A program made the translations under genes and the position numbers. The notes below the pieces were generated by a model. That model saw nothing but the letters and a program-made list of their open reading frames with translations. It searched no databases and had not been told where the DNA came from. 64,000 nucleotides of DNA from the NCBI RefSeq assembly GCF_026571515.1, contig NW_026862013.1, positions 186,001 to 250,000 on the forward strand, in the 5' to 3' direction. This document shows, in pieces, positions 38,751-64,000 of the stretch; the stretch's first letter is position 1; every line of letters begins with the position of its first letter. This DNA comes from Ruditapes philippinarum (taxonomy: Eukaryota).

Positions 38751-38942
38751 AACCTTATAGACACAATCAGTGTGTTACAGAAGGAGATGAGCAGAGAGCA
38801 AGAGAATTTTAATGCTCTCAGTGCCGAGCAAGGTTCACTGAAGAAGAATTCTGGACAATATAAGTCCATCACCAAAGATATGACAGCTTCGCAGACCAGA
38901 CTTACTCTACTCATGGACAGAAGCATGAAGTGTTTCTCCCAG
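38751..38942 (+). CDS. Unidentified gene, coding exon 2 (helical/coiled-coil, NLIDTISVLQKEMSREQ...RSMKCFSQ)
   Basis: Strong acceptor tttattgtag|, 192 nt open frame, donor CAG|gtacaa; phase 0 at both ends. Confidence 0.85.
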
Positions 38943-40761: not shown

Positions 40762-41914
40762 CAAGGAAATCAGCAGAGTAGAGCTGCTGTTGAACGTAGG
40801 AACTCTTTTCAGGGGTCACAGTCTCAAGGAAATGTGCAAAATAGAGCTTCAGAACCAGTCAAAGCTACTGCAGTAACACAGTCTACTGCAGACAGGAAGT
40901 CTATGACATCTGCGGATGTGTCTAAAAAGCGAACTGATAATGGAACTAGTAACAGAACATCTATTCAAGTGCAATCTCTCAGCTCTAACAGTCCAGTGTT
41001 AAGAAGCAAAGCAATTGATATTAATGGATCAAGCAATATAAATGGAGATTCAAATGGAAATGGGCAGAAGCATAATGCATCTGTGTCAAATTCAGTTGTC
41101 TCCCTTGGACCAATGTCTGAACAAAGAAATAAATACATGTCCAAAAGTACAGACAATATATTTAAGAAGCCTTCTGAAACTGCATCTCAAAAACCAGAAG
41201 TTGTTAAGGGAAAAGTATCCTCAAAACCTGTGACTAAAGTAGTAATGAATGCTGATAAACAGATGTTGGATTTAGATTCTTTTACTGAAAGAAAGAACAT
41301 GTTAGATGAATTGAAAAAGTTCGATAAAACATTGAAACCAAGTGCTACCAGAACACATACAGAAAAGGTCACAGAGGTCAAAGTCAACATAGCCAAAAGC
41401 GGTGAAAAGAGATCAAGTGCTGATATTGAGCCAAAGGGACCTGTGACACCAATGGAGAAAAAAGTAAATCTTCTTGGTGATATAAAACTAGGAAAGAAGC
41501 CATCTGAACTTAAACAAACAAAAGTTCCAAAAAGTGAACAAAATGGCAATAACTATGATACAGTAATTAAAGCAGTTGATAACTCTAAAACTGATAATAA
41601 ATTTGATTCTCAAGTGAAACAGTTTGACAATCTGTTAAAAGATTCTGAGAGTGATAAATCTGAAAGTTCTGAAGATTCACCAAGGGAGACAATTGTACCA
41701 TCAGTAAAGAAGCAGACGGCAAATATCTCGGTATCAGGGGAGGTCACTCTAGATGAAGTAAGGGGGAGTACTCCAGTGGAAGAAGCTAGTGATGATAGTT
41801 TGAGCCAATCATCAGGTGTGTCAGAGGAAGATGATAAATTTGTCACAGAATTCCATTTTTCTGGAAGTCAGATTAAGGCAACATCAGCACAAGCAGCAAT
41901 TCCAAAGAAGCAAG
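40762..41914 (+). CDS. Unidentified gene, coding exon 3: S/K-rich disordered region with two WH2/beta-thymosin-like motifs
   Basis: Acceptor aaatttcag| in frame with ORF 40702..41919; donor CAA G|gttagt (phase 1) just before the ORF's stop. Confidence 0.85.
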
Positions 41915-41955
41915 GTTAGTTACTTGATTTATTTGAAACAAATACTCATGTCACT

Positions 41956-42244
41956 TATTAGCTAGACTATTTGAAGAATATGAAGAGCTATTGTACTCAC
42001 CCAGGCTTTGGTTATGGCATTGGCATCTAATGCAAACTTTAATTAAGTTTTCATGTGGTATTTCCAAAACTACTGCAGTGGATAGGTTGAAACTTCACAC
42101 ACTTATTTGGGAGCATTTAAAAGTATAAGCATGAATTTTGACAGAATTATGGCTCTTTTTGAACACAGAAACATTATCCAGGCTCTTGTTTTACTACCAA
42201 GCACTGAGAATAGTCGAGCACGCTGTCTTATGGACAGCTCTTGT
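41956..42244 (+). mobile_element. Short Helentron-type element without an expanded array
   Basis: tattagctagactat ... atagtcgagcacgctgtc-ttatg-gacagctcttgtttt, the same termini as 25673-27027. Confidence 0.8.
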
Positions 42245-45200
42245 TTTATAGAAGTGGAACAGCACTGAATTATATTTTTGTTATAATTTTTTAATAAAAA
42301 GTAATTCATGTTCCACTACAAAAAGAAACGAAAGTTATATGTGACATGGCTTGTATGATTCAATCCCTCAATTTCTCAGGTTACCCAGCTTATTATATTT
42401 GTACATACTTCAACAATTTTGTAGTCAATTTGACTATCTGTATTAGAAACAATCAAATAGTTATAGACCTAAATTGGCTAATAATAAAATGTTGAGTTCT
42501 GGAAAAAGGAATGAGACAGATGTGCCAGTTTATTGGATATTCAAGCTAAAAATATTTCATTTGATTACACCCTTACAAAGTCAAACACCAACCAAACCCC
42601 TTTAAGCTCAAGATATATATCTGAAAATGTTATCTTGAGCTTCAATGCAAAAATTAAAATATATTTTACTCAGTTGTTGAAGGTTTGACTTATCAATGCA
42701 GGTTATAATAATAATGGTGTTTATTGAAAACCCAAAAATACTCTTTCAATATACAAGTAGCACTCTGTAAATCTGCACAGATGTTTTCAAAACTGGAGAT
42801 GATGATTGTATAGAAGATTAAAAGGTGTAAGATTAAGTAATAGGTTGATGCTAATAAGAAAAAAATAAAATAATTTAAACAAAAGGAGCGACTTTAACTG
42901 TTCAAGAGGTTTATATTTTCCTTATTAGCATCAAACTAACTTTGTCATTGTCATTTGTCACTCTTAGTGTGATGTATTTTTCTTCTTTTATCTAAATAAT
43001 GAAAAAGTGTTTGTAAGCATGACTTGAAAAATATATGCATATTAGGGCTCATCAAAGATAGTGATATCATCCCAGAACAAAGGCCACTTTTACACTTTCC
43101 CCCTTGGTGTGCTTAGTTGACAAGTTTGACTGTAGATGTAAATTTTTCAAATTTAGGCATTCTCATTTGACCAAAAAGTAGAGCAAAAACTAATATTAAG
43201 ATATTTGTTAAATTTAAACCACTTTTATTTATAGAATTATTTACAGACTTTACTGTTCCTTATTATGTAATGTAAAGTTGACTACATGTGTCTTTTAATG
43301 ACTACCTCTGTAAATAGACCATTTTCTCCAAGTATATGTATGAGTCTTATGTAGGATGGTTTGACTGTATTTTCTGTTTAAACAACGAAATATGGTGAGT
43401 CATTTTTGAGCAGGAGGTAAATTTCAAGTGTCCACAATTTGGTGGAATAACAAATGATTGTTTATGTCTGGTGTTGCTGAGATCAGGATTTTAGATACAG
43501 ACAATATTGACAAGTAGATTGATGAAAACTTACAGCCAACATACATGAAATCATTATGTTACTCTGCACATAAACTCACTGGGAGAAGTCTGGCAGAATG
43601 AATTTTCTTTTTGTGTCTTTGAGATGCCATTGTTGTTGAGCTGTGTCAAAATTATGATATATTGAGAAGTTGTCAGTTATAATGTATTTGGCATAATAAA
43701 GTTAATACTGATTGTAGGTATTTTAATACCATTGACACACTGTTACTTAGCTTAACTAAAAGAATTTATGTTGTGTTTTTTTGTTTGTTTCAAATTATAG
43801 TGTTTGCAGTAAATATTAATTGATACAGCTTTTAGATTGTTTTTTTATTTTTGGTCAAGATTCCTACTTTTGATTATCTGTTGTTTTTTTCCTACATTAA
43901 ACGAAAATTAATCCTTGATAATGAGAAACAATGATCTTAAGGAAAAAAATGATTTGACTCAATGAGTCAAATCAAGCACCATTTACCTTGTTACATTCAT
44001 TGCATCTCTTAAAATATCACAAAATCCTCCAAAAAGAAGGAAAACAATCCTCCAATTTAGATAGAGCAGGTATAATGTAAATTTAGTTGAACTGGTTTTT
44101 GTCATTTATGTACTGGAAAAAAGTGTAAGAAAGATAATGTAAGATGTCCTTTAAAGGCGGAGGTTAACAAGTCATGCTCACTGTGGGTTTTCTCACACAA
44201 GAAGTTAATAATTATATTCATTTGCGGCATGTTTAGATTTTTATATTTAAAAGATGCTTCATGTGGAGAAGTCTTGCATGGATAAATCTTATCATTTGCA
44301 GAATTAAATACTAACTCATTTATTTCTAATGGTATAGTGATCTTTACTGACTTAAGTCACTAACATTTTGTCACATCATATTTTATTAAAATTCTACAAG
44401 GGAAATTGATGCTTTGTGAGAAAACTGTCCAGCTAGACATGAAAACCCAGACAAGTGCCATTGCATTGAATTTACCATTGAAATATCTTTTATTGCTTGC
44501 CTTTGGTTTTTCTCCATCATGAATAACCTGGAAAGTTGCCATAAAATCTAAGGACTTAAAACCTCGCCTCCATACAAAACACTGCAAAAAAAAACAACAA
44601 AACAACTTAACACTTAAACACAGTTTGTAAACAAACACATGACCTCTTTCATAAGAAACATCTTGATCTGAATATTTGTTCATAGAGTTGTTGTTGTGCA
44701 TTTATTTCATAGCATTGTATCTGATTTAACAAATATTTAGATTATGGAGCAATCCTCTTTTCTCTCCTTCAGCTCACAAAGAGCAGGTAGCTTTGTATTC
44801 AATACACGATCTAGTCATTTGGTTTTATTTCCCCTTAAAGGCATATATATTGATATTTAAATAGTGTGCCTGGGATAGACATTTGTCACCTTACATACAC
44901 TTAAATTACCTGGGCGAGATTTATATATCATATTACGGACTGTTATATTTTTAAAGTAGACTGGTTTAAAATTTAATGGAATGGATATATTGTGAAAGTT
45001 TAAGCAGTGAAATATGGGCACCAGTCAGATTAATGTATGTTTACATGGTTAAGGATTTAAATTTTACGTAGGTTGAATGTAGATGGAAGATTTTTATATA
45101 AAGTGTAGGCATAAAGGCATGACAAATTTGGTTTCATAAAAATTCATGGCTGTTGAACGGAATAATTTAAATATGATTGGATGAGTTCAAAGGGGAGAAG

Positions 45201-45961
45201 TTTTTGAAAATCAAAATATTAAAAACTGTGTATTACACTGACAGGTTATGACACTAACATTGATTTGATGTTTAAAAAATGAAAGTGACTTTTGTGAACT
45301 TTGTGAAGTGGACTATTGCGTTATCATAAAAATATTTGATGTCTTTGGAGATCAAATAGCGTTAAGGCACAGCACACATAAATACGCGCATTGTGCGGTT
45401 ATAAAGGCTATTGAACATATAGAACAACATATATACAGCTGTTACTATATATTGTGTAGTGGGGAAAACTTAATGCACTGAACTTTCATTTCGTACACCC
45501 GAATGACAGATGGATTATATTTTTACACTGTCTATTTAGAATAAAAACATTAATATAGAAAGTAACAAATTTACTATGGCAGGATGATGACTTGTTAGAA
45601 TAAGTCAATTATATTTGACAATTGAGATAGTTTTGTCCGAGGTAATAACGCCTCTTTACAGTATGTGTGATTTGTAATCGTTCATGGTCTAGCGGACATT
45701 CAATGTATTCGATGGAAATAGCGTGCTACAATTTAGTGAATTATCCGATATTAAGACAGCTGATCTAGGATATTAAATAAACAAAGGCTTTGTTACAGAA
45801 GGACATGTGATCACTCGGAATGAAACCTCGTAATGACTTACAAATAAAGGTAGAAACTATTCTTTTGTGATAAATGATCTGTTGATACAAAAAGATAACA
45901 GTGCTTATTATACACATTAAAGTACATCAAGTTGTTGTTTGAATCAGAGAATACAAAAAAA

Positions 45962-48900
45962 ATGGCTGATATTTCGACACTTGCTGAGAGATTTGCTACT
46001 AATGTAAGGCAGGACCGACAGCCTATTAATGATATGATAAATGCTAGGCTTCAGAGAATTCAGGAACTGGAGCGTGTACGTCTGGAGCATGCATCAGAAC
46101 ACACAACTAATGTCGGTGATGGAGACTCACGTCATTCAAGAAGAGATCGATTTATTCGCCAGACGGGACAACGCTCGATAGAAAGACAGAGTTTTGGATC
46201 AAGCATTCAGAGGACACCCTTAAGGTCTCAGAGTTTTGAAAATACAACATTAGTTGCTGATATGGCTGAGGATACACAAAATTTTCGTAACATGTTCGAA
46301 AGTTCAAGAGAAACTTTATTTGGACCACGAGTAAGTGGAAGTAGTGAAGATTTAAATGGTAGACGCACTTCAGATACAGCTCTTACTGCACCAAGGGTGA
46401 CATTTCAGACAGGGTCAGAGTCTGGTTCAGGTTCTAGCACTCCAAGAGGTACTGTGAATGTTCGACCAATGAATGAATTTACTTCTGGTTTAGCAGAGGC
46501 ATTTTCTAACATCCGTTCAGCAATGGTAAGATCAGATTCATCAAGTTCTTTAAGAGAAACGAGGAGGAGCTCTTCAATAACACGTGAAGCCAGCTCTGCT
46601 TCAAATCTACAGAGAATTGCTGTTACAAATAACAACGGAAACTCTTTAACCAGATCTTCATCAGTGCGGGAAACAAGGCGGGAATCTCGTTTTCGACGTC
46701 GTACAATTCAAGGGGTTGATAGTAATATATCTCGAGCAATAGAGCAGGAAAGATCAGAAAGAATATCACCTTCAGTCTCAAGGTCAGTATCACCTCTTGT
46801 TGTTGATACAGCTTTGACTTCAGCACCTGGTTTACATGGAATGACAACAGTTACACAGTCAAAGGAATCAACTCGCACTACTTCAGCATTTTCTTCAACT
46901 TCTTCATCCTATTCTAGCCGATATCCAAAGAAAATTGATTTATATCCAGAGGATGGTATTGCTGTTCTTGGGTTTGAAAAAGAAATGGAAATTTTTGTCG
47001 ATAAAACAGGAAAAATTCATTGGTTGAAAAAGACTCATCCTTTGATAAAGGAAGTGAAAAGGTCCAATCAAGTTCCTGAAATTGTGCAGCAGTCAAAACT
47101 AGCCTTAACAAGTGGTGATAACTCAGAAGGTTTTGTTGCTGCTATAGAAGGGGATGTGGATGCAAGGTATAGCAAACTAAGAGAACTAGTTACACTTGCA
47201 AGAATGAGAGATGGACATTTAGAAAATACGGATTTTACTGACTCTGCTATGGCATTAGCTTTACTTGAAGTAAATAAAAAAGATGACTCTTTTGAGACAA
47301 TAGATATTGATGAGAAGTTTAGATCTTTTAGTTTATACACTGAACCACGACCTAGACAAGATATTGAAAAATTGATCTCATTGAAAGAAGTTCTACCTAT
47401 ATACCATGGAATACCACGTTCTGAATTACCACAGGAAATTAAGGAGCGTGACAGTGACAAATCAGAAAAGGATTTAGGCTATAGAACATTTGAAAATTAC
47501 AATTTTGATTTCATAAGGTCTGATACAAATGGTGCAGCAACTAGAACCCAACAAGCAAGATCTCGAAGAATTCACGAACAAGTTTCAGGTGATTCAGCTG
47601 ATGGCAGTTCAGCAAGTTATACAAGAACTGGAGAAAGTCATGCAGCATCTGAAACAGTCTCTGATGGATTAGGTAATGTTAGTAGTAGGCAAGGTCAGTT
47701 TCAGAGTCAAACTCAACAAGCAGAAATTCGAACTAGTGATGGTGTCAGTAATATATTCCAAAGACGAGCTGAAGCAAGGCGTCAACAATACACGTCAACA
47801 GTAGAGGGATCACATGAAAATGGAATGTCATTAATACAGAGAAGGGCAGAAGAAAGAAGACGGCAATACTTGGCAGAGCAACAAAGAAATGAAAATGGTA
47901 CCACAGTGTCTAGTTCAAGATCAGAGAGTATGCAGCAACAATTTTCATCAGAAACTCGAACAGGTCCAAATGGAAATGCGAGAGAAAGTGTGGCACAAGA
48001 AAGACATCAGCAATATTTTACCAGACAGACCAATACCAGCGAGAGTAGCAGTTCAACTGTAAGACATGAGGAGCGCTCAAGCACCATTAGACAAACGTCT
48101 TCTAAGTCAAATATAGTCAGACAATCTTCTCAAAGTCTTATTGATAACTCTGATATACATAGTGAAGTAAATTTAGTTATGGAAAGGCTTCATTTGATGC
48201 AGAGTAACCCTTCTGAGCCGTTAGATGCAAGTCATCTTGATTTTGAGGAGATGTTAATGATTCAGAAAGCATTGGCTGAAAATCCAAGTCCTTCATATAG
48301 CCCTGTGGAGTTTGAAACTGAAAATTTAAACCCTGATGAAGTGATACCTGTTTCTGATGATGTAAATGATCAAAATCAAATGGAAGGATCTTCTTCATTT
48401 CAGACAATTGAACAGTCACATTTAGACACAAATATAAGAGAAGAAGCTTCAAGTAGTTCCACAAATAACACAAATTTAAATGAAATGTCAATAGTAAAGT
48501 CAGGTGCAGACAATGTAATTGACTCAAATTTAGGTTCTGAAGCCTCAAATTCCAGATCAGGTTTTATAAGTGCAAAACAATCAGTGATTACTCATACAAA
48601 AGTAGTTGACGATGAAGAAACAACAAAGGGAAATACTGTGGTAACTGATTTGAATTCAATTCAAGATACATTATCTGAAGAAACTGCTGGAGAAACCATT
48701 ACTGAAACATTTACAGTTGATGCTACTGTTAAAGATGATGTGATTGAGTCTAGAACACCTCGATATCAGAGGCTGCCTTCTGAAGGAGGGGAAGGTAGAC
48801 TGCCTCTACCTTCAATGGACTGGTCCCCTTTGGAGAGGAGTAATTCACCTATTTCACCTAATAGATTTTCATTTGAGGATAGAAAATCTGAAAATGCAAG

Positions 48901-49318
48901 TAGTGCTAGCTCAACTGTATCTAATTCTAGTGCATCGAGTAAATTTACAGTTCCTAAGACTTTAAGTTCCACACCTATGACTGGTGTAAGTTCTTCTGTT
49001 CAAAGTGAACTAACAATTGAAATTCCATCATACAGTCCTGTAACCAGTCCAAATGTTCAAAGTGAGGCAAATTCAGCAGACACTCAAAATTTAACCAATC
49101 AAAATGACTCTTACAAAAGTCATACGGATACTGTAACATTACAAGCTTCCCCTTTGGTTAAAAGTCCAGGGGCCAGTTTATCAAATTCAAATAGCTCGGA
49201 AGCACCATCACCTGCAGGAAGTGAAACCGTGACAACCGTTTTTGAAGAATTTATTCAGACTGTTCCTTATAGTGTGTTGATGAAGATGAGAGCTGCAGAA
49301 GAGGAAGACAGTGACTGA
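45962..49318 (+). CDS. Giant uninterrupted ORF (1118 aa from ATG 45962), largely disordered S/T/R/E-rich protein; single-exon gene or terminal exon from 45948
   Basis: 3.4-kb open frame in AT-rich DNA; aaaATGG start context; in-frame phase-1 acceptor aatcag| at 45947; AATAAA near 49661 and 49882. No recognisable catalytic or transposon domain. Confidence 0.88.
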   Translation: MADISTLAERFATNVRQDRQPINDMINARLQRIQELERVRLEHASEHTTNVGDGDSRHSRRDRFIRQTGQRSIERQSFGSSIQRTPLRSQSFENTTLVADMAEDTQNFRNMFESSRETLFGPRVSGSSEDLNGRRTSDTALTAPRVTFQTGSESGSGSSTPRGTVNVRPMNEFTSGLAEAFSNIRSAMVRSDSSSSLRETRRSSSITREASSASNLQRIAVTNNNGNSLTRSSSVRETRRESRFRRRTIQGVDSNISRAIEQERSERISPSVSRSVSPLVVDTALTSAPGLHGMTTVTQSKESTRTTSAFSSTSSSYSSRYPKKIDLYPEDGIAVLGFEKEMEIFVDKTGKIHWLKKTHPLIKEVKRSNQVPEIVQQSKLALTSGDNSEGFVAAIEGDVDARYSKLRELVTLARMRDGHLENTDFTDSAMALALLEVNKKDDSFETIDIDEKFRSFSLYTEPRPRQDIEKLISLKEVLPIYHGIPRSELPQEIKERDSDKSEKDLGYRTFENYNFDFIRSDTNGAATRTQQARSRRIHEQVSGDSADGSSASYTRTGESHAASETVSDGLGNVSSRQGQFQSQTQQAEIRTSDGVSNIFQRRAEARRQQYTSTVEGSHENGMSLIQRRAEERRRQYLAEQQRNENGTTVSSSRSESMQQQFSSETRTGPNGNARESVAQERHQQYFTRQTNTSESSSSTVRHEERSSTIRQTSSKSNIVRQSSQSLIDNSDIHSEVNLVMERLHLMQSNPSEPLDASHLDFEEMLMIQKALAENPSPSYSPVEFETENLNPDEVIPVSDDVNDQNQMEGSSSFQTIEQSHLDTNIREEASSSSTNNTNLNEMSIVKSGADNVIDSNLGSEASNSRSGFISAKQSVITHTKVVDDEETTKGNTVVTDLNSIQDTLSEETAGETITETFTVDATVKDDVIESRTPRYQRLPSEGGEGRLPLPSMDWSPLERSNSPISPNRFSFEDRKSENASSASSTVSNSSASSKFTVPKTLSSTPMTGVSSSVQSELTIEIPSYSPVTSPNVQSEANSADTQNLTNQNDSYKSHTDTVTLQASPLVKSPGASLSNSNSSEAPSPAGSETVTTVFEEFIQTVPYSVLMKMRAAEEEDSD

Positions 49319-50130
49319 TTTATAAAGAAATTTATTCATTATTGATATAAATATATATGCATGTACCTGTTCATTGTCATAATATCACAGTTACCTATCA
49401 TATATATTCTTGCCAAATGGAATGATACATCAATAAGTATGGTAGTCTGTGCTAGCTTTATGTGAATAACTATAGATATGATATGATAATTTGTCTTTTT
49501 CTTTTAAAACTATAGATACAATAGGATGATTCGGCTTTTTATCATTTATTTGATTTATTAAAAAAAGTGATTTAAAGTGATTTATTGAATATTGTAAAAC
49601 AGATTTCCACCAAAATCTCAGATGATAAGTGATTTACTTTTTCATGGAAATAATGCTATAAATAAATGCTAAACTAAACTTTATTACAACAATAATAATC
49701 TTTAAAATTAACAAATATTATCTGCATTGTTATAGATTACAGTATATTATGTTAAATTAATTCACAATTAAAACATTGAAATATGTTTCATTGTCACATT
49801 CAATCATACTTATCAGTCTTCATAAAATGTCACCCATTTATTTATGTCAATCAAAAGTAGCCTAATTATTTGTTAACACCTTAATAAATAAATGATATCA
49901 GGTTTGTTTAAAAGTCAAAATTCCATACTCAAATTATGTTCACTTTTAATTGATATGCTCCTTTGGTTGGTTAAAATCATTATTTTTAATCATGTCATGG
50001 ATTTATATTTTACACTGTTATTTGGTGCATCTTTGAAAAGGACAGTTACTGTAGTATATTACTATTATTAAGATTTACTAAATGTGAGAATCTATAGCCT
50101 GAAATATTTGTGATGTGTTTATATGTTGTT

Positions 50131-50363
50131 TTTTTAATTGCCGAGTAATTTGAATTTGTATAACTGACTTTCTTTTAATTGCTGAGTAATTTGAATTTGT
50201 ATAACTGACTTTCTTTTAATTGCCGAGTAATTTGAATTTGTATAACTGACTTTCTTTTAATTGTGGAGTAATTTGAATTTGTATAACTGACTTTCTTTTA
50301 ATTGTGGAGTAATTTGAATTTGTATAACTGGCAGAGTAATTTGAATTTGAATAACTGACTTTC
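50131..50363. repeat. Minisatellite, ~41-bp unit (ttttaattgccgagtaatttgaatttgtataactgactttc), ~6 copies
   Basis: Direct tandem repetition. Confidence 0.93.
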
Positions 50364-53298
50364 CATAGTCTACCAATTTTAGAATTTTTTCTGAGGAAGA
50401 CTAGACCCCGAAAGCTAAAGAAAAACCGTTTTGCTTTCATTGAACTGATTATACATAGTTTACCAAGAAATATTTAAATCATGGTTAAATTTAAAGCTGA
50501 ATAGGTCTTATAATTGTTTTATCTAAAAGTGAAAAAGTATAAAATACTAGTATATAAACAGTTAACAATTGTGATAACTATTTAATGATTATTTATTTGA
50601 AAAAATATTTGCTAGCTATGATTAAATATGTACAGGAATATCTCACAACATGCTTGTTTGTTAATCTATAATTTGTGTGCTACTTTTACAAATCAGAATT
50701 TCATTTTTCAATTGAAAATACAGTGAGAAATGTATGAGATAAATTCTGTTATGTGTATTAAATGCATTTTGCTAAGCTTTGGTAATGGGTTTAAGGTTTT
50801 TATGTGCGACTCCCAGCATGAATCTGTTTTTGTTTTGAAATAAGTGTGGGAAATTTTTTAAAGCTTTGCACTGGCACAATACAAATCAATGTTTAAAAAA
50901 TGGCTTGAAGGTCATGTTATCAAAGTTTATAAAAAATTAAAATTTTTTCATCATGATTGTTGTTTCAGTTGCTGAAATGAATAATAATGATTGTCTTATT
51001 TTTTTTGTAAATGAACAAAGAATAATTTTCTTTTTTGGCTTTGAATTTGATAATATGTTTTAATTGTGCTGTGCTTGTAGTGTACAGATTTCTCTACAGT
51101 GACATGCTATACACATTTCTGTCATTTTGGATATTTACAGTCTCAGACAAAGAACATCAGAATTTATTTATAGCACTGATCCACTGCATGAAATGAACAT
51201 ATTGAATAAATTGTCGATACAGTTTCCAGCAATCATATTCTCCTCAGAATCAATAATGTCTGTAGATTATAACTTTGATTTTTTTATAAAGATCTATCTA
51301 TTTTGGAACATGTTTGTGCGTTGTTGATGAGTAACTGTTAAATAAGTACATGTATTTATGTTGTCTGTCCTATCATGATTGTATCATGGGTTAAACTATT
51401 AAGTGTGTGTGTTTGCTTCCTAAGCAATATTTCTGTCATACGTTTTAATGATTTCCAAAAAAACAACTTATAAAAGGGCAACTTCAACTGAATTGTGTTA
51501 TTTAGTTTTTGTCCGACAGTAAACGTCCTATGGTAATAATAAAAAGAAACCAAGTGCCTAAAGTTAACCTAGTGTAAATGTTAGACTTTTTGACAAGTAT
51601 ATAATGATATTTTTATGTGATACAGATTTGAATTAAAGAGTTTTTCTGTAATTTATAAATTATATAGCATTTTCTTTAACTTTTTGTCAGTGTTTCTTAG
51701 TTGTTACACTAATGCAACTGTGAAGTATGATAATGTACCAATAATTACAATGTATAAATATAATTTTTACTCCATGGACCCCTTAATATTGTTAGTTTCA
51801 CCCTTATTTAATAATACTTTAATATGTATTGGCTGAAATATGGTATATAAAAATTATAACCAAAAGAATTAAGTGACTTTATTGTAAATCATGTCTTCCA
51901 AGTCTGAATTGGTTTGGTTTAAAGTCATGGTCATCGAGATCTAATAATGTTCCAAAAGTATTTGTCTTGGGAAACCATGGTTACGACTCCAAACAATATT
52001 TCAGGGACCAGATGGGTGGGTGCCTGGGATAGTCTCTACCATTCCATAAACAAAACCTGAATTTAGATGACTGTTTTAACAGGAAAACATTATATAATAG
52101 TAGTGTGATAAATGGGTTGTGAATGAAAAAGAACCGATCAAGTGAAAGTTGATATTGATTTATAGATATAGGTATAAATTATTTATGTTTGCAGTCATAA
52201 TATTGCTATTATATTAATTGTCTCTCATAGTGGTGCTAATACACTTATAGAATATAACGTGATATTAAATTAATTGTTGCCTAGCTTTTCCATGAAAAAA
52301 CATTATTGTCTGGTTATTATCTATTTTTTATGCTTGTATACATTATGATAAGGTAATACAATTTTATTTTGCAGTGTCATTATGACAATAAAGTATAAAA
52401 AAAATCTTCAAAGTGTTTTTAATGTTGTCTTGTGTTCAGGTGCATTGCAATGAAAAAAAAAACATGCAGAAACATAATCAATTTTAAAATCTCATGTATT
52501 GCTAAATTTGTGAAATTGACTTGCCATTTGAGCAGTCAACAATATTGTATGCCAGGACCTGTAAGAATAGCGGTTTTGGAAACTTATTTACATGGGCAAA
52601 TATCTCACACTCAACGTGCAGCACTTCTGAAACGTATCCTACCATCGCGATTCACTCTTTTAACAAAAATGAAAGTCAAGTTCAATGTATTAAAATATGT
52701 GAGCTAATCTACTAAATGTCACGAATCAAATAGATTGAAATTACTTTCACACTGCATGAGTCCTACTCAACCTAGGTCGCCTTTCAATATCCAATATCAT
52801 TTGTTACTAAACAATAGCAACACTTAACTATCGCAAATCTTTCGTAAAATCGATATTATGATGCTTTTCATGTTAGAACTCCATGTTTCTGTATGATTAA
52901 CTATGCCTCTTGATGACTAATCTCATTTTGATTATATTTTAATTGAATATCGCACAAAATACGAAGTAAGTAGAAAAATCTTTGCAAACGGTAACGCTTT
53001 TTGGCAACCAGTTTAAGTAATGGACTTGAAGATGGCTTATAAACACTTTTATATTATACATGCTTTGCAACTTTAATATTGATTGTGTTTTTTGTTTTAT
53101 CAAGAATACTCTTGCTTTTTATGAGCAATCTCATAGTGATTTATTGTCATTGAATTTTTCACACATAAAGCATTGGTCAGTAGGAACTTTTGTGCCACGG
53201 ACGTCAGGCGCCTATAGCCCCGCCCCGCTTTTCAAAACTGGGGCCCCGTAGAAAATTGATCTAGTTTCTGTGTCCAGGTGAGTGAAAAAAATAATAAT

Positions 53299-53433
53299 AT
53301 TGGGTTAGTTTAGAGGATGGGGAAAATTTCCCAACCCTGGGGAATCGGTTCCATCGGAAACTCGCCAAGGCTCGTTCCCGATAGAACCGATCACCCTTGG
53401 GTTGGGATTTCCCTATCCTCAATCTAACCCAAT
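53299..53433. mobile_element. Foldback MITE forming a ~60-bp imperfect hairpin
   Basis: attgggttag...gaggat.ggga...tcccaaccc...atcggttc.atcgg mirrored by ccgat.gaaccgat...gggttggga...tccc.atcctc...ctaacccaat. Confidence 0.8.
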
Positions 53434-54039
53434 GATAGATTCTATTAATATATTAATGACAATATGACAGTGTTAAAATATCTCACATTAGCCATCAGAG
53501 AGTTCAAAACAATGTCCAGAATTCGTCCTGAACCTCAAACCTTGCGACATCCTTTATTATGCCATGTAAATGTTTTAATGTTTGGCCACATCCCAATTCG
53601 GGACTTAATTATGGAATCTATGGAAGCCAAAAAAGTGCAAGATTTGCAATAACCTTTAATTATGCTATGCCATTGAAAGAATATAAGGTTGTCTGTAGTT
53701 TTTAAAATACATGTACTTGAAAAGTTTGGCTCTATTCTTGTGGCATAAGGCTCATCACTTTTGGGTGCAAAACAAACCCAAAGGTTTACATGATAGTAGT
53801 AGACTTATAGTTTTAAACAATAAAAGAATTTAACCTGAGACCAAAATGCCAACATTAACATAAAATGTTCTATAATTAAAGCATGTACTTAACATGCTCA
53901 GTGATTTATAATGGCTGTTTGTCTGCACTTCATCATCATTGTCATTTATCAAGGAATTTTAATGTTACAATAATGACTTCACATTGCTAGATTGTATAAA
54001 TTGTTCTAAATAAGTAAGGTTATGTTATACAAACAACAA

Positions 54040-54720
54040 AAGCAGGGAATCTTTGATGTCTGTCAGTACTTTGTCTTGAAAATGCAGGAATTGGTGCTCT
54101 ATCTGATACTAGCAGGAAGCTTTTGTCACATTCCCTGTCTTGTAAGTGCAGAAAATGTTTGAAGACAAGTCCTCTGTCTTCTTAATGTAAGAAAGGTTTG
54201 GTCATGTTATGGCAGGAAATGTATGGTGGATAACTCTTTGTTTTGTTGTGGTAGGAAAGGTTTTATGTCTAACTCTTTATTTTGTTATAGCAGGAAATGT
54301 TTGATGTCTACATCAAATTCCTTATCTTGTTATGACAGGAAATGTTTTGTGTTGTTATGACCAGAAATATTTGGTGTCTTAGCTCTCTGTTTTGTTATGG
54401 CAGGAAATGTTTAGTGTCTTTTTATGTCAGGAAATGTTTGGTGCCCAACCTTCTGTTTTGTTATAACCGGAAATGTTTGGTGCCTTAAACCTTCCATCTT
54501 ATTATGGCATGAACTGTTTGGTGTCTTAAACCTTCCATCTTGTTATGGCATGAAATGTTTGGTGTCTTAAACCTTTCATCTTGTTATGGCATGAAATGTT
54601 TGGTGTCTTAAACCTTCCATCTTGTTATGGCATGAAATGTTTGGTGTCTTAAACCTTCCATCTCGTTATGGCATGAAACGTTTGATGTCTTAAACCTTCC
54701 ATCTTGTTATGGCATAAAAA
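54040..54720. repeat. 41-bp minisatellite (ggcatgaaatgtttggtgtcttaaaccttccatcttgttat) with a degenerate 5' flank
   Basis: Near-identical copies at 54470-54715; increasingly diverged copies upstream. Confidence 0.9.
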
Positions 54721-57389
54721 CATTAATGAAATGTGTTGTTGTATCTGGGAATGTTTTAATGTCTTTCTAATCATTTTGACATCATAGAAATGCATATCTG
54801 TCTCTTAGTTATAACAGGAAAGGTGTTGTTAAACCAACTGTTTTGAAATAACATGTTTAAAGGATGGGATTTTAATGTCCCTTATCCATCAGTGTTTTTA
54901 GGTCATAGTTACATGAGTTTAAAACGTTATTTATATTTCTTCAATTAAATGAGGTTTGTCTGCTTTTAGTTTTGTCTTAATTACCATATTTGAGACAAGT
55001 TTGTTTGAAATATTTCATAATGGTTTGCCATATGTTTGTTCAGACTTTGAAATAGTGTGTAATATTTATACAAATTGTTTTGAAAAGGTATGCATCAACA
55101 TAAATATAAAAGAAAAAATACAGTCAAACCTAGATAACACTTATCCATAATGCCCCCATCTCCATCTAAAGCTTTCGTAAACTGGCGTATTTTGTGACTA
55201 TGGCACCCTTGTTTCATTTTCAAAAGGCTTGTTTTACTGACAGGTTTCACTGTACTGTTTCATGTAGAAAGTGACACATAATTTGCAAAATGTTGATGTT
55301 TTCTAGATTCAAAAATTTACCAAGCCTCATTTATTATTCATTTAAGCAGGTAGAACTCATAAATAGTGGTTATTATGCATGAAATGTCCTGAAGAATTTT
55401 GGGGGTATGGTCTATCATTGAAAGAAGGTAAAAGTGTGGGTAAAAGGTATTTACATTTATATTGGATCTCAATGTTTTATTACCTGTTGAAGTCTCCCAA
55501 TAATGAAATATATACATAATTATTATAAACTACTTTGAACCTATGTAAGTTATTTTATCTGAAGATATATGTTTTACCTTAAATCATATCATTTTATCAA
55601 ATTTCTAAACCTAGTCATCTTGGAGACACAGCTAGCTTTGAAATATTTTTTGATATGTTAGAATGTTAAATGTTGTGTTGAACATTTTGATAAAGTCAAC
55701 ATTTTGCACTGTCAGAATGGAAATATAGGTGAACCCTTCTTATAAAGACCAGTGGAAATTGGTCTTTCTTTACAGGTGGTCATTCAAAGTAAACTTTGTA
55801 GCTGTAAAGAAATGGGTTTCAAGACTATTTCTGGTCAATATTTGAAGATTTTATTACATGTACTTGGATAGAACTGAAGTTAAATTAATTTTTGAGCAAA
55901 CAAATGAATTGATATAAAATTCTTTTTGATATAATTATTATGTTAAAATGCTGAATAAGCAAAAATATGTCAGTATGGATCAACCTGAAAGTCGTTGTTT
56001 CTTTACTTATGACTATGGTACCTCTTTTGTATTTGAGAAAGCAAATTATACTGAATAAGGGGATTGTTTCTCAAAAATGCCATATATACAAACATAGATG
56101 TTGTAATAAGCGTTAAATCAAAATGTGCTGACTTTACATATATTTAGAAAAGCTTCATGACCATGTAAGACTGTATTAGAACTTTATTGATGATTTCTGC
56201 AGAAAGTAAATCACACTCTTGTTGCTGAACACAGGCGTCTTGTTTATAATTATCCAATAAAATGTCACTCAGATATAAAAATAGAAATTCGAGACTGGAA
56301 AATTGAAGATTTATTGCAATATTGTATTTATTTCTTTGATAGTGTTACTTTGAACTCTTATTGTAATATTTTAGAATTTAAAACAACATGTACAATATGG
56401 TTTTGTCTAGGTGTCAGTTGACGGTCATGTTTTTCACATGATTGAATCTTTAACTGTACAACTTGGATATAAAGTCTCTTACAGTGTATATTTCAAGAGT
56501 TGGTTGCAATTTTGTTGTAACTTGGTGTATATAAAGAACAAGTTACGAGCTTGTTGAAAATATTGATAAAGTCTGGTTAATCCCAAAGTTGGAAATAATC
56601 CTTGTGAAGTAAGCTGGTCAATGATAGATCTGTATGTGATGTCAGGTGGAAGAAAAATATCTGATTATATTTTATCTGGGATATTGTAATTTAACAACTA
56701 AAAATAACAGTGTACTTTAAACCTTAAAACCTGCTGATTTTGTGTAATGGGCTGATCCATCTATGAGTGTGGAAGAGTCCATTGTTTATATAAAGGGATT
56801 TTGATATCAAAGTATTAAAATTGAGCTTTAGACTCCTGGCAAAGGCCTTTCTTTATGGCTCCATGTGTCCAAAGCAATGAATTATTGGAGACTTTCCCAT
56901 GTCATATACAGATAGTCACCAATAGTCACCAATTTAACAAGGGTACTATGACATTGGTTGTTTGTACAAGAACATTTGTCATACAATAAAAGTCATATCA
57001 AATTATTTACTTTTCAAGACTTCAGGTAATAATTGATTTTGATTTCTTTATAATTATATCCTTAGCTAAAATATTACATCACGTACACAAATAGGTGTTT
57101 ATTCTAAATATTTGTAGAAAACTTTGATTGTGACTAAAATGCCACAGGGTATGAGAGAATAAAAAAAAATCCATTATAGTTAATATATTACATTTGCTCC
57201 CCCCCCTGACTACCTTAATGTAACAAACATATAAATGAAAGAGGCAATGCAAATATCTTGTGAATAAAGTATCATATTATATTTGGTCATAAAACTGAGT
57301 ATGTAAAAAAATTTAAACAGCTAAAAGCTGAGACATTATATATATTATACAGGTACGGGGACAAATATTTAGCATGCATTTCTGATTGG

Positions 57390-57590
57390 TTGACTAGTGG
57401 CTGAGTGGTAAAGGTCACCAACTTCAAATCAATCGCCCTCAGTTTGTTGTTGGTTTGAATCCTGTGAGGAACTTTATATGTTTTCATGTGCGAAAGCTAT
57501 CCAGCTAGCTTATGGAAAGTCCGTGGTTCTACTCAGATGCCGCTCATGCCTGAAATAATGCATGAAAGGGCACTTTTAGTGTTCCTCCAC
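57390..57590 (+). mobile_element. tRNA-derived SINE (same family as 34413-34658)
   Basis: A box gtggctgagtggtaaagg, B box ggtttgaatcc, core catgtg..aagctatccagctagctta.ggaa...gtggttctactcag. Confidence 0.8.
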
Positions 57591-59031
57591 TCCAGACACT
57601 ATCCAGTATTAGCACAATAGGTAAAGCCTTGGACAGTGAATCAGGCCATTTGGGTTCAATTCTCAGATCATGCAGGTCACTTTCGTTGATTAATTAAATA
57701 GCTTTTGTAAATAAACTTTTCCTCATGTTCACAAAATTTACCTTTGTGGTGGTAATGGTATACTTTACTGGCATTCCAGAGAATACTGTAGTCCTGCGCT
57801 CAATTCCTGCTACAGTGCCTAGCATTTTTTTTATGTGTGAGTTATATTTTCCATCTATAAATTACCATATAGAACTCAAACTATTCCTTTTATGGTGTGG
57901 TACAGTCTGACATGTATATAAATGTTTTTTTGATGTCCCACTCAAGATTTTTATCTCAGGCCATTAAATGCTGATTACACACTTAAAACAGATTTATTTT
58001 TGCTTTACAGTAAACCTGGCATGGACTTGAAATGCATTATTTGCATAATTTCATGATTCATGTGTTAATGGCATACACAACATTACAGTAGTCATGAGAT
58101 ATAAAAACATTTAGCCTTGTGGACATGCATTCACTTAACATACAATATATAAATTGTTTGAAATCCATCTTTAAATGAATACATATATAATTATATATAT
58201 ATTTATAATTATAATTAAATAAAACACCTCCAAGTGACATCACTTGTAATATCCACAGGAAGTATTTTTTTGTAAAAATAATGAGAAGATAAATGAGGGA
58301 TGTTTTGTCACTTTTGTTGTCTAATATTAGACGTAAGCAGCCTTCAGTTTGTTTGAAAAATGTGCGGTTATGACCAACCATAATTATGTACCTGTCAAAG
58401 GTCATACAATTCGTGTATAAAACATCTGTTAGGCTATTTCCCCCAATACTTTCTCCACCCCATATGTCTGGTCATATATTGCCTTAAGACATTCTTATGA
58501 GTGAAAACAATATTGTTGTATCTCTTTCTTTATGTCATATGAATATTGACCATTTTTGCACCAAACTTTAAAAACCTTTGGTGTAATCAGCTGACTTGGT
58601 CATTTAGTCCACTCAGTGATAGCATCAGAGGGAGGGTCCACGTTTCTGAGATTTGGGGTAAATTTTATTTACTGAACTGCTTGAGAAATTGAATGTTTAA
58701 TTGTTCGCTGACTTTTGTATCTGCTGAGTAAACATTAATTTTACCACCTAAATAGATAGTTCATTGTGGTGTTAATATAGAAATACTACTTATGGATATG
58801 CACACATTTTAGAATGGAAATCTGTGGCTTTTATTATTTATTTAGCAGGGTTTTTTTTAATCGGTAAATTTCATAGATCATTTAAGGTCATATGGTAACT
58901 TTTAAGATGGCAGAAAAAGTTTGATAATTACCCACAACGACACGAAGTAAAAAACCCCCCAAAAAACAGTCATCCCAAGCTTATTGCTCCTCTTGCTCTA
59001 CGATGGAAGTCAGTGTAGTTAGCAGTGTTCT

Positions 59032-59120
59032 CTGTTTCCTCTTCCGCTGTTTCCCCTTCTGCTGTTTCCCCTTCTGCTGTTTCCTCTTCCATTGTTTCCC
59101 CTTCCGCTGTTTCCCCTTCT
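59032..59120. repeat. 15-bp tandem repeat (ctgtttccccttc(c/t)g) x ~6
   Basis: Direct tandem repetition. Confidence 0.9.
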
Positions 59121-59957
59121 TACTCATGCTTTCTGTATATAGCTTAACTTGCTTTCAAATAGGTTCAGCTATGCCCCTGAAGATCTAAATTTGGAACTGA
59201 ATATGAAACTTCAATGCAAATGAATGATAAAATGTAAACAGATTAAATTTTAACCCACAGATTAAATTTGAACCTACAGATTTAATTTGAACCCACACAC
59301 TAATAAGAAAATAAATTGTTAAATCATGTCTTTATTCCTTTATTCTTTTTATATGTTTGGTTGTCTTAGCATAATTAGAGTTCATTGCATAACTGATGTT
59401 ACTTTTTGTTATAAGTCGAGTTTGTTACAACATTGTTGAATCAATCTCTCAGTTTGAGATTTTCATGATAAGATGAGATTACCAGTATTATAATCTGAGA
59501 ACACAATGGTTGACAATATCATAGCATACAAGTACAGGTACATGCCCACAGGGTTTTAAAACCACATTGTAAATTGCATGATATATAGTAGTTATAAATG
59601 ACTGTTTTTGATAACATGTGAAAGGTGCACTGATTTTTGTAGATGAGAAAGCAAATACACCAGTTATTTTTGTTATCTTTGTCACACAAATTGTCTGTTA
59701 TGGGACAAGGAAGATAATGTTTAATGACAGAAATGATTAAGGCTATGTGAGTGACTAGCAAGGTTTAGATCATTATACATTTTCACTATTATGGGTTTCG
59801 TTTAAGTGTTGAAAATTGAGTACCCGCCCAAGCCAGTGCTGAGGGGCACTTTTTTCATTATCCCTACTTGTAATGTACAGAATGAAACCAAGTCTGCAAT
59901 TTTCATGTAATTTTGTTGTTTGTAATGCTTCAGAGGAATCACCCTTTTCCCAGACTT

Positions 59958-60166
59958 TTAACCCTCAGCCTGCTTGCTTCGAGTTCAACTAAATCTGCCC
60001 ATACTATCAGTGCAGACCAAGATCAGCCAGCCTGCTGAGGTCTGTGCTAGCCACAGCTCAGTCATAATTATTTCGAAATATTTCTAAAGATAATGAATGG
60101 GCTACTCTGGATTGAATACTGGTAATGGATATGTCCATTTATGATACTTAATGTGGTAAGGGTTAA
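59958..60166. mobile_element. TTAA-flanked MITE (ttaaccct...agggttaa)
   Basis: Terminal inverted repeat including TTAA; internal gcagaccaagatcagcc motif shared with 27800-27980. Confidence 0.65.
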
Positions 60167-60469
60167 TATGAAAGCTGTCAGGAAATATGGACAACCTGTT
60201 AATAATGCTGATTATCAATAGCCCCTCCCTTGTTTGAACCCCATATAGGGCAGTAAATGATTAAACACTGGTTTGCCTTTAATAATGTACTGGTCAGCAT
60301 CTTTGGCTTTATCCTCAAAGCTCATTTTAAGAATCAGAAGACCAAGTGGATATGTCTTCTAAAGTGAGAAAATGCCGCAGCGGCAGCCCTTCACTATACT
60401 GGAAGAAGAAACTAAATTTTAAAACCTCTAGAATGTTTGCCACTGTAGAATTTATAACTTGAGACCATC

Positions 60470-60653
60470 TTAACCCATAACCTGCTGGAACCAAAAGGTG
60501 ATTTTAGCCTTTGCCACAAGTATAGAGACAAGCCAGCATGCACATCCGGGCAGCCTGACCTGATGCTCTATACTGTTGGCTGACCTAAACCACAAAACTG
60601 ATAATGGACAGCTGAACAAGTTCATTTAAGAAAATTAGTGGGTTATGGGTTAA
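60470..60653. mobile_element. TTAA-flanked MITE with 13-bp terminal inverted repeat
   Basis: TTAACCCATAACC ... GGTTATGGGTTAA. Confidence 0.75.
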
Positions 60654-62528
60654 ACAGACAGTATTTGCCATATCCGACAACTTGATGATTTGATCAAGTG
60701 ATCTAGATCAGACCAGTCTGACACTCAGATGATGACAAGAGTATATTCTGAGTATTCTACTTCTTACCTCTCTGACCGCATGCAGTGGCCATGCAAAGGT
60801 CAAAGCAAAAGATAAAGTAAATGGTGAGACATTTAACACCAGGGGTCACTATCAAACTTTTCAATTTTCGGTATCAATTTTCACTTGTACCTCAAATTAT
60901 AATGCCCATTCTATTCACCTACATGTGATTTTTCACTTCAACCACAAAACATTGGTTTTATAGATGTTCATGTTGCCCTAGGGCTCATAAAAAGGAGAAA
61001 TATATGCATTAAAAATCACTTACACAATAAATCTTTTAAGAGCGACTGTGATTCAGGCAAGTGATCAAAGTTAAGATTAACCCAGTATGAAAAGATCAGT
61101 AAAGAGAATATACAATTTTGAATTTGGTAGACATTAAGTTATCTTGATGACATAAAACACATATGTTTAGAAAGACAGAGTTGATATTTGAGATATCTCA
61201 TAAATATACTTCAATGTAGGCAATAAAGATAGACCTTGTTTTAAAAGTTCCATAAATGATATGATATGGCATTTTTATGTTTGCTTTAATATTAGGTCAA
61301 CTTTCTGCATTTATTTCCTAATGGAACACTATTTCCATTGTAGTTGACTAATCGCAAGAATGGGTTCACTGATTCATAAAATACCTATGTTTGTACACTT
61401 TTATATCGAAAGTAAAGTGACGGTGAAATAAGAATACCAATAAAATATTTGAAATTTATGTGCTGTAAAAAATTCGTTACACTGGAATGATTTTTCAATA
61501 GGAGAGTGTTAAGTGACATTATGAACCGCAATACTTTGGATTAAATTTATTTTAAACCTTGATATAAAGTAAAATAAATGTTGCGAATGAAGTGTGTAGT
61601 GATTATAAATAAATATATGTATTGTGTGGCGGTTTAAAGTACACTAAATACAATATTCACCTTTTTGTCAGACTTTCGAATAAAGGTGTGTAATATATGT
61701 TTTGTCAACGAGAGGCAATGACTGTGTTGTGTTTGATTGATAAGCGACTTTCATTTTCGGCGGGACTTACTTACTAATGACAGTACACTGCGGCAATCTA
61801 GCCGTGCGTAATAAACTGCTTCACAATTGGATAAGCAAACCACATGAGCTGGGGATTTTGAATTTGAAATTTGAATTTTGTTGTCACATGATATCTTTAT
61901 TGAATGAAGTTAAACATTTCGGTTATTGGAAGGATGAGTTTTATTAATGTTTTTTTTTAGGACACAAGTAATTTTTTTAAAGTGAAAATAAGTATGTTGT
62001 TGATGGGATATTATAATCACAAGGCGTGACAAACAAGATCGAGATAAGTAAGCTGTGAATTACATATTTTGCTGACTGGTTTTGCTTTATGAATTTTAAA
62101 TAAGTATCGAGATGATTAGGATGAATATATGTGGGTGAGAATTTGAATTGTGGGTGAAATCAAGCAAATATTCTATATACATGAGGAACTGTTAGACTGA
62201 GAAATCATATTTTATACACAAAACATGGTCTAAACGACCTGAGATTAACTTTGTTTAGAAAAGGTTGATTATTATTTCACATTTTGAAAATTACGTGACC
62301 TTGATACAAAGTGCACTGTGTTTTACAACATGTAACATTAATGACATTGTTGGATTTGAAATGAAAAGTAAGAATTAACAAATAATTTTCGTAAAGTTGT
62401 TTGATGACAGTGGAGGGAAAGCAAAGAAAAAGTGGTTGACTGAAGAATAAAAAAACAGCAAGTGACATTTTGTAAAAAAGATAAAAGATATTTCATTCAG
62501 GAACAAAAAACAACGAAACTAATTGAAA

Positions 62529-64000
62529 ATGAATTTAACAACTTCAAGTTACTCAAACATGCTGGGAGGTATGTGGGGGCCAGAAGGAAGCGAAATTAAC
62601 GAAAGGTTAAAAAGACTTGAGCAGTTACAACAAATGCGGAAAGAACGAGAAGCAAAACTTAGAAATGACTTTAAAAGTGCCGAGACAGGTGTCAATATTG
62701 TAAGGACTGAAAGGATAAAATCATCTGATATTGATTCAGAAAACCCATCAGGATATAGATTTCGTAGAACAATGTCAATGCGTGAAAATGAAACTGATAG
62801 ATACGGTGGTGCAAGACCTAAAATGGGCAGCTTTAGCTTGTTTGGACAGGACGATAATCAAGAGACTGATGGTAATCCAAAAACCATATTTAGTGGGATT
62901 GTTTCATCAGTGTTAGGTACCAGAAAACCTCTTAGAGCAGACTATTCAAGCAGGAGCAGGCTTGGTAGCGGGGATTCAGACTCTTCAGACACAACTTCAA
63001 CTTCATCGTACAGATATGACTTTTCTCGACCAAACGTTACTGAAAATTCTTATAGTAGCTCTTACTCCAGGCCAGAAGAAAGCAAAGACAGAAACATTTT
63101 TTCAGGAATTACAAAAAAAGGCATGAATAGGCCTGGCTATGAAAGTAGTTCATACAGCAGGAGAATGAATACTGAGATACCAAGAGTGAATGATGAACAA
63201 AATAGCTATGATGGTGATGAATATAGTAATGAGCAAACATCTAATGAGAATGAAGATGTTAACACTGAACATTTTGAAAGTCATGAGATAGAGGACCATG
63301 ATGAAGAACCTAAATATTTCATAGAGAGGCTGAAAAATGGAAATGGTAATTCCCAAAGTGAAACAAATGGATATGGACATTCTATACCAGCAGTTCCCCC
63401 TTACAATGGTGATGATTCAGAAGTTGAAACTTCTGAGGTTTATTATGAAGATCTTCACAACTCATGTATACAGCCAGAAGATGACATTTTGTCTGTCGCC
63501 CAAGAAATAAGTACTACTTTTGGAAACCTTAAGAGTCCAACTTACTTGACACCTAAAAACAGTAGTCAGAAAAGTTATTCCAGTAAAAGGTTCAGTGATG
63601 AAAAAATGAATTCAAATGGTGGTGTAGAGGATCCGGATGTTTCTGTGACATATGTTTTACAAGAAGCTGATTATGACAGTGAGGGAGATGAGGAAGGGAA
63701 AACATTACCTGTGAGAGAAAGTATGTACATTGCTAGTACCACTGAATGGAATGCCTTAGATCAGACACAAGGAAAGCTTGACGAAATGCATGAATTCTTT
63801 ACCGGAGAGGCCCCAAATGAAGATCCAAACATTTCAAGAGAGCTTGATGGGGGTAAAGTGAAAGCTGAACTTGAGAAAAGCTTCTCAACACCAAAGACTA
63901 GTACTAAAGTTAATGGAAATAAAACCCCAACCAGTGTGAAAAAGAGTGCAAAGAAAGGAAGTGCTGTGAAAAGAAGTAAGTCCCCATTAGATAAATTGAA
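62529..64000 (+). CDS. Large uninterrupted ORF (at least 490 aa, runs off the window): MNLTTSSYSNMLGGMWGPEGSEINERLKRLEQLQQMRKE...
   Basis: Manual translation shows no stop from ATG 62529 to 64000; an in-frame TAA at 62520-62522 precedes it. Absent from the ORF track, presumably because it has no stop in the window. Confidence 0.9.
   Translation, partial: MNLTTSSYSNMLGGMWGPEGSEINERLKRLEQLQQMRKEREAKLRNDFKSAETGVNIVRTERIKSSDIDSENPSGYRFRRTMSMRENETDRYGGARPKMGSFSLFGQDDNQETDGNPKTIFSGIVSSVLGTRKPLRADYSSRSRLGSGDSDSSDTTSTSSYRYDFSRPNVTENSYSSSYSRPEESKDRNIFSGITKKGMNRPGYESSSYSRRMNTEIPRVNDEQNSYDGDEYSNEQTSNENEDVNTEHFESHEIEDHDEEPKYFIERLKNGNGNSQSETNGYGHSIPAVPPYNGDDSEVETSEVYYEDLHNSCIQPEDDILSVAQEISTTFGNLKSPTYLTPKNSSQKSYSSKRFSDEKMNSNGGVEDPDVSVTYVLQEADYDSEGDEEGKTLPVRESMYIASTTEWNALDQTQGKLDEMHEFFTGEAPNEDPNISRELDGGKVKAELEKSFSTPKTSTKVNGNKTPTSVKKSAKKGSAVKRSKSPLDKL

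Follow-up and report, generated by a model that had tools for sequence, protein, structure and literature searches.

Two giant, probably intronless genes nested in one intron of a clam actin-like gene share a conserved, predicted N-terminal helix

Within a 64,000-nt window of the Ruditapes philippinarum genome (contig NW_026862013.1, positions 186,001 to 250,000, forward strand), two very long open reading frames (ORFs), here called ORF A and ORF B, lie on the same strand inside an intron of a gene encoding a protein with a PH domain and an actin-like domain (the host gene). Their ATGs, both on the + strand, are separated by 16,567 nt. Close to the start methionine both proteins carry a 23-residue motif, predicted to form a helix, which is previously undescribed and common to two nested clam gene families. 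On balance we favour a model whereby A and B are independent intronless genes that arose by an ancient tandem duplication, are nested on the host strand, and use the shared helix to dock on the same or a related partner.

The initial annotation of this DNA had pointed to a match between the two N-termini, and the 17-mers are exactly as it noted: INARLQRIQELERVRLE at 46037-46087 in ORF A and INERLKRLEQLQQMRKE at 62595-62645 in ORF B, identical at 8/17 positions. The window pair alone is a weak case. BLASTP returned it at E=1.3, and the Smith-Waterman score of the whole proteins (109 vs 104+/-13, reached by 64/200 shuffles) placed the shuffle check that had been proposed for the pair within chance; with only the first 60 residues compared, a post hoc choice, the score was reached by 2/5000 and 4/5000 shuffles. 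The further short motifs said to follow the helix in the same order in both ORFs fared poorly in relatives. RFRRT (paired with RFIRQ) and SLFG (paired with TLFG) were each present in 1/14 B rows, and the SSSYSSR/SSSYSR pair is low-complexity and variable. For AFSNIRS/IFSGIVS, an FS core is kept in both families, but the score of 15.2 lies below the best reversed-profile score of 27.9.

Once orthologues were used, the helix match was beyond chance. Over 14 A and 15 B sequences, only one of which has an NCBI record (P0013), the 23-residue motif reads P-x5-N-x-R-L-x-R-[IL]-Q-E-L-E-x-x-R-x-E. Arg13 is found in 29/29 rows, Arg2, Leu9 and Glu15 in 28, Glu10 in 27 and Asn0 in 26; the Pro was part of the pattern used to locate these rows. 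An independent alignment showed this Pro, which lies six residues before the Asn and had been overlooked in the initial annotation, to be invariant (21/21 rows). Among 23-residue windows the motif is the most conserved of family B, and in family A it ranks within the top 2.7%. The majority lines of the two families have 11/23 positions in common, and cross-family pairs share a mean of 10.6/23 (range 6-13, 210 pairs).

Comparison of the two families with hhalign gave a probability of 88.4%, rising to 92.6% with deeper alignments (39 columns). The score was 71, vs 32.8 with the profile reversed and no more than 27.6 when columns were shuffled locally (25 shuffles). This significant similarity was confined to the N-terminal helix, and neither full-length similarity nor a single-copy outgroup was found. 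For comparison with natural decoys, a profile built from three A sequences only was run against 177,635 PDB sequences and the 15 B proteins: 11/15 B proteins scored 13.2-23.2 bits vs 12.4 bits for the best PDB sequence, and three of the most distant B members scored highest. The helix is thus kept in orthologues of both ORFs, contrary to the refuting outcome named in the initial annotation, and its match outscores natural decoys.

An alternative is convergence, in which unrelated nested genes would have gained a similar helix independently, either for the same partner or because helices rich in E, R, K, Q and L look alike. The lack of similarity beyond the helix, the insignificance of the window pair alone, the opposite overall charge of the two chains (isoelectric point, pI, 5.3 vs 8.9) and a ribosomal S2 helix that reached 14.7 bits on the mixed A and B profile by chance would all agree with such an origin. 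However, the motif stands at an equal offset from the Met with a common Pro cap and Asn, the genes are adjacent in one intron, and neither the ranking of 11/15 B proteins above all PDB decoys nor the high scores of the three distant members is what convergence predicts. We consider it unlikely. Common descent of the helix, with the disordered remainder of each chain diverged beyond recognition, is the likely explanation.

Relatives of both ORFs are complete proteins. ORF A has 12 homologues (919-1156 aa, 39-75% identity) and ORF B has 10 database matches including itself (1125-1268 aa), all of which start at or near the homologous Met and stop at or near the homologous place; five further B members came from the motif-profile search. 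All 12/12 A and 10/10 B matches are stand-alone frames without a Pfam, actin or PH domain, within the lengths searched (614-1957 aa for A and 859-2450 aa for B). The exact ORF A sequence was absent from the protein collection searched. On genomic contig L001 the ORF A orthologue is uninterrupted, so that ORF A is single-exon there as in the window, and an in-frame stop lies 4 codons before its ATG; in the window a stop lies two codons before the ORF B ATG, and B is presumably single-exon downstream of its first 490 codons as well. Of the substitutions in ORF A (926 codons compared), 593 fall on third, 433 on first and 323 on second codon positions, the 3>1>2 pattern of coding sequence.

Both proteins are predicted to be largely disordered, with the motif helix as the most confident stretch. 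In the AlphaFold model of ORF A the predicted local distance difference test (pLDDT) score is below 50 at 840/1118 residues and 83-88 over aa 21-40; in that of the B orthologue P0016 it is below 50 at 1018/1191 residues and 77-90 over aa 21-40. Foldseek with the ORF A model returned no match at E<=0.001. A conserved block at aa 323-480 of ORF A (about 46930-47400) is predicted with low confidence to form a small beta/alpha domain, without a match in Pfam or Foldseek.

RNA was examined over 38400-50100, which covers host exons and ORF A. In run X1, a contig joins host exons 2 and 3 (GT..AG, depth 70), leaves the stretch at 41914 and runs 331 nt on sequence from outside it, showing that host splicing skips ORF A; exon 40762-41914, which the initial annotation had described as ending at a splice donor upstream on the same strand, therefore ends at a donor that is used. 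ORF A is covered in the same run by unspliced contigs at 45614-48291 (depth 72) and 48478-49606 (depth 62), the latter extending past the stop to an end near poly(A)-like hexamers at 49557-49883, and host intron 2 has a depth of 0; the level of ORF A is thus close to that of the host. Among the joints listed for run X1 none leads to or from ORF A, and ORF A has no strong splice donor common to the window and L001 or L002. Two smaller features of the RNA lie upstream of ORF A. Over 43100-45960, both raw-read runs have reads up to 2.9 kb before the ORF A ATG, about as deep as those over the ORF itself, from a long 5′ untranslated region, an upstream start or host pre-mRNA, and at about 43040-43150 a short X1 contig with a depth of about 68, like that of ORF A and the host exons, is either a repeat or a small non-coding exon.

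CpG-rich, promoter-like patches precede ORF A and ORF B (Table 1). The CG share of C is 0.034 in host introns and 0.10 at the host 5′ end. Oyster gene bodies carry methylation from the start site onward (PMC4378273), so the patches likely mark unmethylated promoters. A and B are very probably each driven by a promoter of their own, which the CpG-rich patch would mark within a CpG-depleted gene body. A conserved 19-nt non-coding element upstream of ORF A, with a summed match of 39/44 over three species vs at most 34 in 45 control stretches, is likely a promoter site; it might alternatively act as a weak splice acceptor, though no join was seen. The element was not found before ORF B. A third CpG-rich patch lies at 52.5-53.5 kb and could be an alternative first host exon or a 5′ exon of ORF B. 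Within it are a strong donor-like site at 53278/53279 and, at about 53305-53430, a palindromic stretch that may derive from a transposon.

The initial annotation had left open whether A and B are nested paralogues or alternative first or last exons. In the exon version, A and B would be giant variable first exons with their own promoters, spliced to the PH/actin exons in some tissue, or A would be an alternative last exon joined to the host N-terminus. Both ORFs are indeed in tandem, on the same strand and upstream of exons for folded domains, each has its own CpG patch, the conserved upstream element has an AG-like end, an in-frame phase-1 AG precedes the ATG of A, and the N-terminal half of the host likewise consists of a helix and a giant disordered exon. 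However, there is no fused protein among the 12 A and 10 B matches, though one would have fitted within the searched lengths; the C-terminal motifs and stops of A and B are conserved; A has no conserved donor and no join among the joints listed, and its depth stays near 62 through the stop; and the ordinary N-terminus is retained in the host isoforms listed for Mercenaria and Dreissena. We regard splicing of this kind as very improbable. The same low standing attaches to its most far-reaching form, in which A and B, as present or former promoter-bearing variable exons, would swap a 1,100-residue disordered N-terminus onto the PH/actin-like core from tissue to tissue with the helix as common docking site. 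Because of the RNA, the 5′ CpG patches and the stand-alone full-length relatives, A and B are most likely nested intronless genes and not alternative exons. Of the two branches first proposed, that of nested paralogues is the one that fits.

The host gene is R. philippinarum LOC132717647 (XP_060557148.1 = P0036), matched via the exon upstream of ORF A. Its 1052-aa product combines a coiled coil at the N-terminus with a long disordered part, a PH domain and an actin-like domain; the last matches Pfam at E 5.5e-50, and the PH domain falls below the Pfam cut-off (21.3 vs 25.1 bits). Host residues 476-1052 had no match in the 64-kb window by tblastn, and ORF B is still open at the window end, so ORF A and the visible part of ORF B lie in one same-strand intron: ORF A entirely, ORF B for its first 490 codons, with host exon 4 beyond the window. 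P0013 (ORF B) and P0036 (host) are on contigs of the same size, 292,294. A host profile gave no match to ORFs A and B. The gene is annotated in five species; its named relatives are from Mercenaria, Mactra, Mya and Dreissena, and all named relatives of the host exon are heterodont clams. The PH/actin half is strongly conserved across five named clam genera, within an unusual architecture of coiled coil, disordered part, PH and actin-like domains. Literature searches, with supplements outside their scope, found no paper on the host (LOC132717647; mollusc actin-like + PH fusion or architecture) or on the A and B proteins, and the term 'nested gene' did not occur in the clam papers listed.

Table 1. 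Positions of the features described, in coordinates of the 64,000-nt window.
Feature	Position	Strand	Support
Host coding exon 1, XP_060557148.1	36889..36969	+	tblastn 100% to P0036 aa 1-27
Host coding exon 2	38751..38942	+	tblastn 100% to P0036 aa 28-91; RNA contig splice to exon 3, GT..AG
Host coding exon 3, phase-1 donor at end	40762..41914	+	P0036 aa 92-475; following exon outside window
Host intron, >22 kb, open at window end; holds ORF A and start of ORF B	41915..64000	+	
Conserved non-coding element, 19 nt, 1.1-1.3 kb upstream of ORF A ATG	44826..44844	+	also L001 (716), L002 (284)
CpG-rich promoter-like patch before ORF A	45001..45961	+	CG share of C 0.158 vs 0.034 in host introns, p=2e-7
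ORF A, intronless, 1118 aa, mostly disordered, pI 5.3	45962..49318	+	12 full-length homologues; RNA contigs; codon-position pattern; model
Shared motif of ORF A, aa 21-43, predicted helix	46022..46090	+	
Third CpG-rich patch, between A and B, GC-box-like run near 53220	52501..53500	.	CG share of C 0.136
CpG-rich promoter-like patch before ORF B	61301..62528	+	CG share of C 0.169 vs 0.034, p=2e-9
ORF B, first 490 of 1212 codons, mostly disordered, pI 8.9	62529..64000, past window end	+	P0013 100% identical; homologues; model
Shared motif of ORF B, aa 18-40, predicted helix	62580..62648	+	

Under the favoured model, the ancient tandem duplication would have given two intronless genes nested on the host strand, each producing from its own promoter a long disordered scaffold protein; the shared first helix would bind a common or related partner, and the rest of each chain would serve as a scaffold of short motifs. 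That the two proteins dock on a common partner was already suggested in the initial annotation, and here too the proposal is drawn from sequence. On a helical wheel the hydrophobic residues occupy positions -1, 3, 6, 9 and 12 (spacing 4-3-3-3, no heptad), and the invariant Arg2 and Arg13 sit mid-face among them. With the hydrophobic residues and both arginines on one face, an acidic binding surface suits the helix better than a coiled-coil core. We give even odds to the view that the Pro-capped helix, with its one-sided invariant arginines and hydrophobics, folds on binding an acidic partner, probably a cytoskeletal one.

The spacing bears equally on self-association, in which A and B would be duplicates and the helix a coiled-coil element for homo- or heterodimers of A and B and not a site for a third protein. 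The long amphipathic helix with which the chain opens in both models is consistent with this, and ORF B has an LC8-like site (motif given in PMC3078936) of a kind found in dimerising disordered chains, but the lack of a heptad and the arginines at mid-face make such pairing distinctly improbable. A predicted complex of the two N-termini, made with alignments unused, scored 0.02 and carries no weight here.

The motif had no meaningful match in Pfam, 8 matches at E<=10 in PDB of which none was meaningful, and no match in the ESM Atlas; full-length profiles gave 1 chance match and 0 in PDB, and single 29-mers gave 0. Pfam likewise gave nothing meaningful for 22 A and B proteins or for the window ORFs. 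Taking the IQ consensus to be [FILV]QxxxRGxxxR, the motif does not conform: Gln is present in 22/29 rows, the following Arg in 16/29 and Gly in 0/29, and there was no IQ match in Pfam. An ESM Atlas search with ORF A found no match, and with ORF B scores of 0.77 only, the top weak match for B residues 1-130 being Exophilin-5. In Slp, exophilin and rabphilin proteins, the SHD1 region is an N-terminal amphipathic Rab-binding helix followed by a very long disordered chain. The I/L/R/E spacing of the A and B helix is similar, and the invariant Arg stand where SHD1 has a Val and a Glu needed for binding. Unlike this family, A and B have no zinc-finger or SGAWFF block after the helix, and 0/21 motif rows matched a Slp/exophilin Pfam family at E<=10, nor was such a domain among the 8 PDB matches.

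Beyond the helix, ORF A carries an RRRTI[QED]G site, which may resemble an NHS-family motif, and several conserved helices. ORF B carries a CKHCG knuckle, a basic-hydrophobic tail and YMxxTx[SA]S repeats, the last of which may bind microtubules. The B family also has an LC8-like S[VT]QT[DE] site in 14/14 rows, without the Lys at -3 of the LC8/DYNLL ligand motif [DS]Kx[TVI]Q[TV][DE] given in PMC3078936. Together the LC8-like site, repeats, knuckle and tail of ORF B would point to the cytoskeleton. A prokaryote genome scan with ORF B gave no match.

Run against 1.84 billion proteins, a profile of the mixed A and B motif gave 19 matches at E<=0.001: 10 known, 7 new members and 2 artefacts. P0055, P0056, P0059, P0060 and P0061 are B members or fragments, and P0057 and P0062 belong to A. 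P0057 is a 349-aa copy of the start of A with a differing 9-residue end and was taken as an assembly artefact, there being no donor at the point of divergence. The two proteins dropped, P0058 and P0063, are repeat proteins whose scores were summed over 18 and 7 weak stretches and which match neither family. Neither a third motif family at this threshold nor a sequence intermediate between A and B among the 19 was found, nor were further motif copies in 2,886 six-frame segments of the window; a larger hidden family, as once suspected, is thus not supported. Any third family standing as far off as A stands from B would miss the cut-off, because the profile of one family scores the other at only 7-18 bits. 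Orthologues of A and B occur in pairs on contigs of equal size (P0062/P0061, 848,181; cluster mates P0073/P0072, 9,162,916), which suggests that A and B are linked in two more assemblies.

Several points weigh against the favoured model. The homology rests on about 23 charged, helix-forming residues with nothing else aligning, and the hhalign probability dropped to 0.09% once B residues 1-45 were removed. In the A-only test, 2 B proteins scored below the best decoy, the window's own B and P0061 failed the filters, and the window's own B was the poorest match; PDB is also a smaller decoy set than its count, because many of its sequences are near one another. The RNA evidence covers ORF A of the two ORFs and comes from a single set of contigs presumed to be RNA, though this set contains a spliced joint; the two raw-read runs are at depth 1-7, apparently unstranded and without a start site, and also cover about 43.1-45.9 kb. 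A rare host-to-A join is possible on paper because the in-frame phase-1 AG lies 14 nt before the ORF A ATG, and the CpG patches are not specific to ORFs A and B because the third patch is without an ORF. Finally, nesting is shown in the present genome only, and linkage elsewhere rests solely on equal contig sizes.

Same-strand nesting of intronless genes is itself already known. In a Drosophila survey, intronless genes are over-represented in nestings on one strand (71.5% in D. melanogaster), many internal genes are duplicates, and, as with A and B, such genes lie within a long intron; unlike A and B, they tend to be small and young (PMC5174743). Clustered protocadherins (PMC7811963) resemble A and B in their tandem, very large single exons upstream of exons for a common C-terminus; each exon has its own promoter and, a constant distance upstream of the ATG, a conserved element, and Pcdh-beta members are complete single-exon genes. 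A and B differ from them in being two disordered units alike over 23 residues only, without cadherin repeats; splicing of A to constant exons was absent from the joints listed for shallow RNA, and no fused protein was among the A and B matches. CPNE1/RBM12 (PMC2568002) likewise combines two differing coding sequences in one locus on one strand. That pair shares a promoter and 5′ exons, whereas A and B have their own CpG patches and no common 5′ exon was seen for A.

The analysis brings to light two large, conserved families of clam proteins that appear to escape standard annotation. Since the motif has no match in Pfam, PDB or the Atlas, it offers a handle for finding and testing both. The arrangement is an unusual nesting, with two giant same-strand genes apparently kept in tandem in a little-studied PH/actin-like gene; its effect is lineage-limited.

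Other features were noted in the window, which had no tRNA or Rfam match. Tandem arrays occur at 23173-23719, 25779-26909, 31384-31769, 37290-38360, 50132-50330 and 54205-54719, with units of 33, 162, 146, 145, 41 and 39-41 bp, respectively. At 30284-30574 (+), a 97-aa open frame of protein-like composition lies in a CpG-rich kilobase (observed/expected 1.17) and does not match the host. At 8585-10090 (+) is a single-exon gene for a 501-aa coiled-coil and NHL-repeat protein (Pfam NHL E 6e-12), flanked by opposite-strand exons at 4120-4881 and 13978-14196 (-), and possibly a further nested gene. By eye we take these two exons to resemble PPP4R2.

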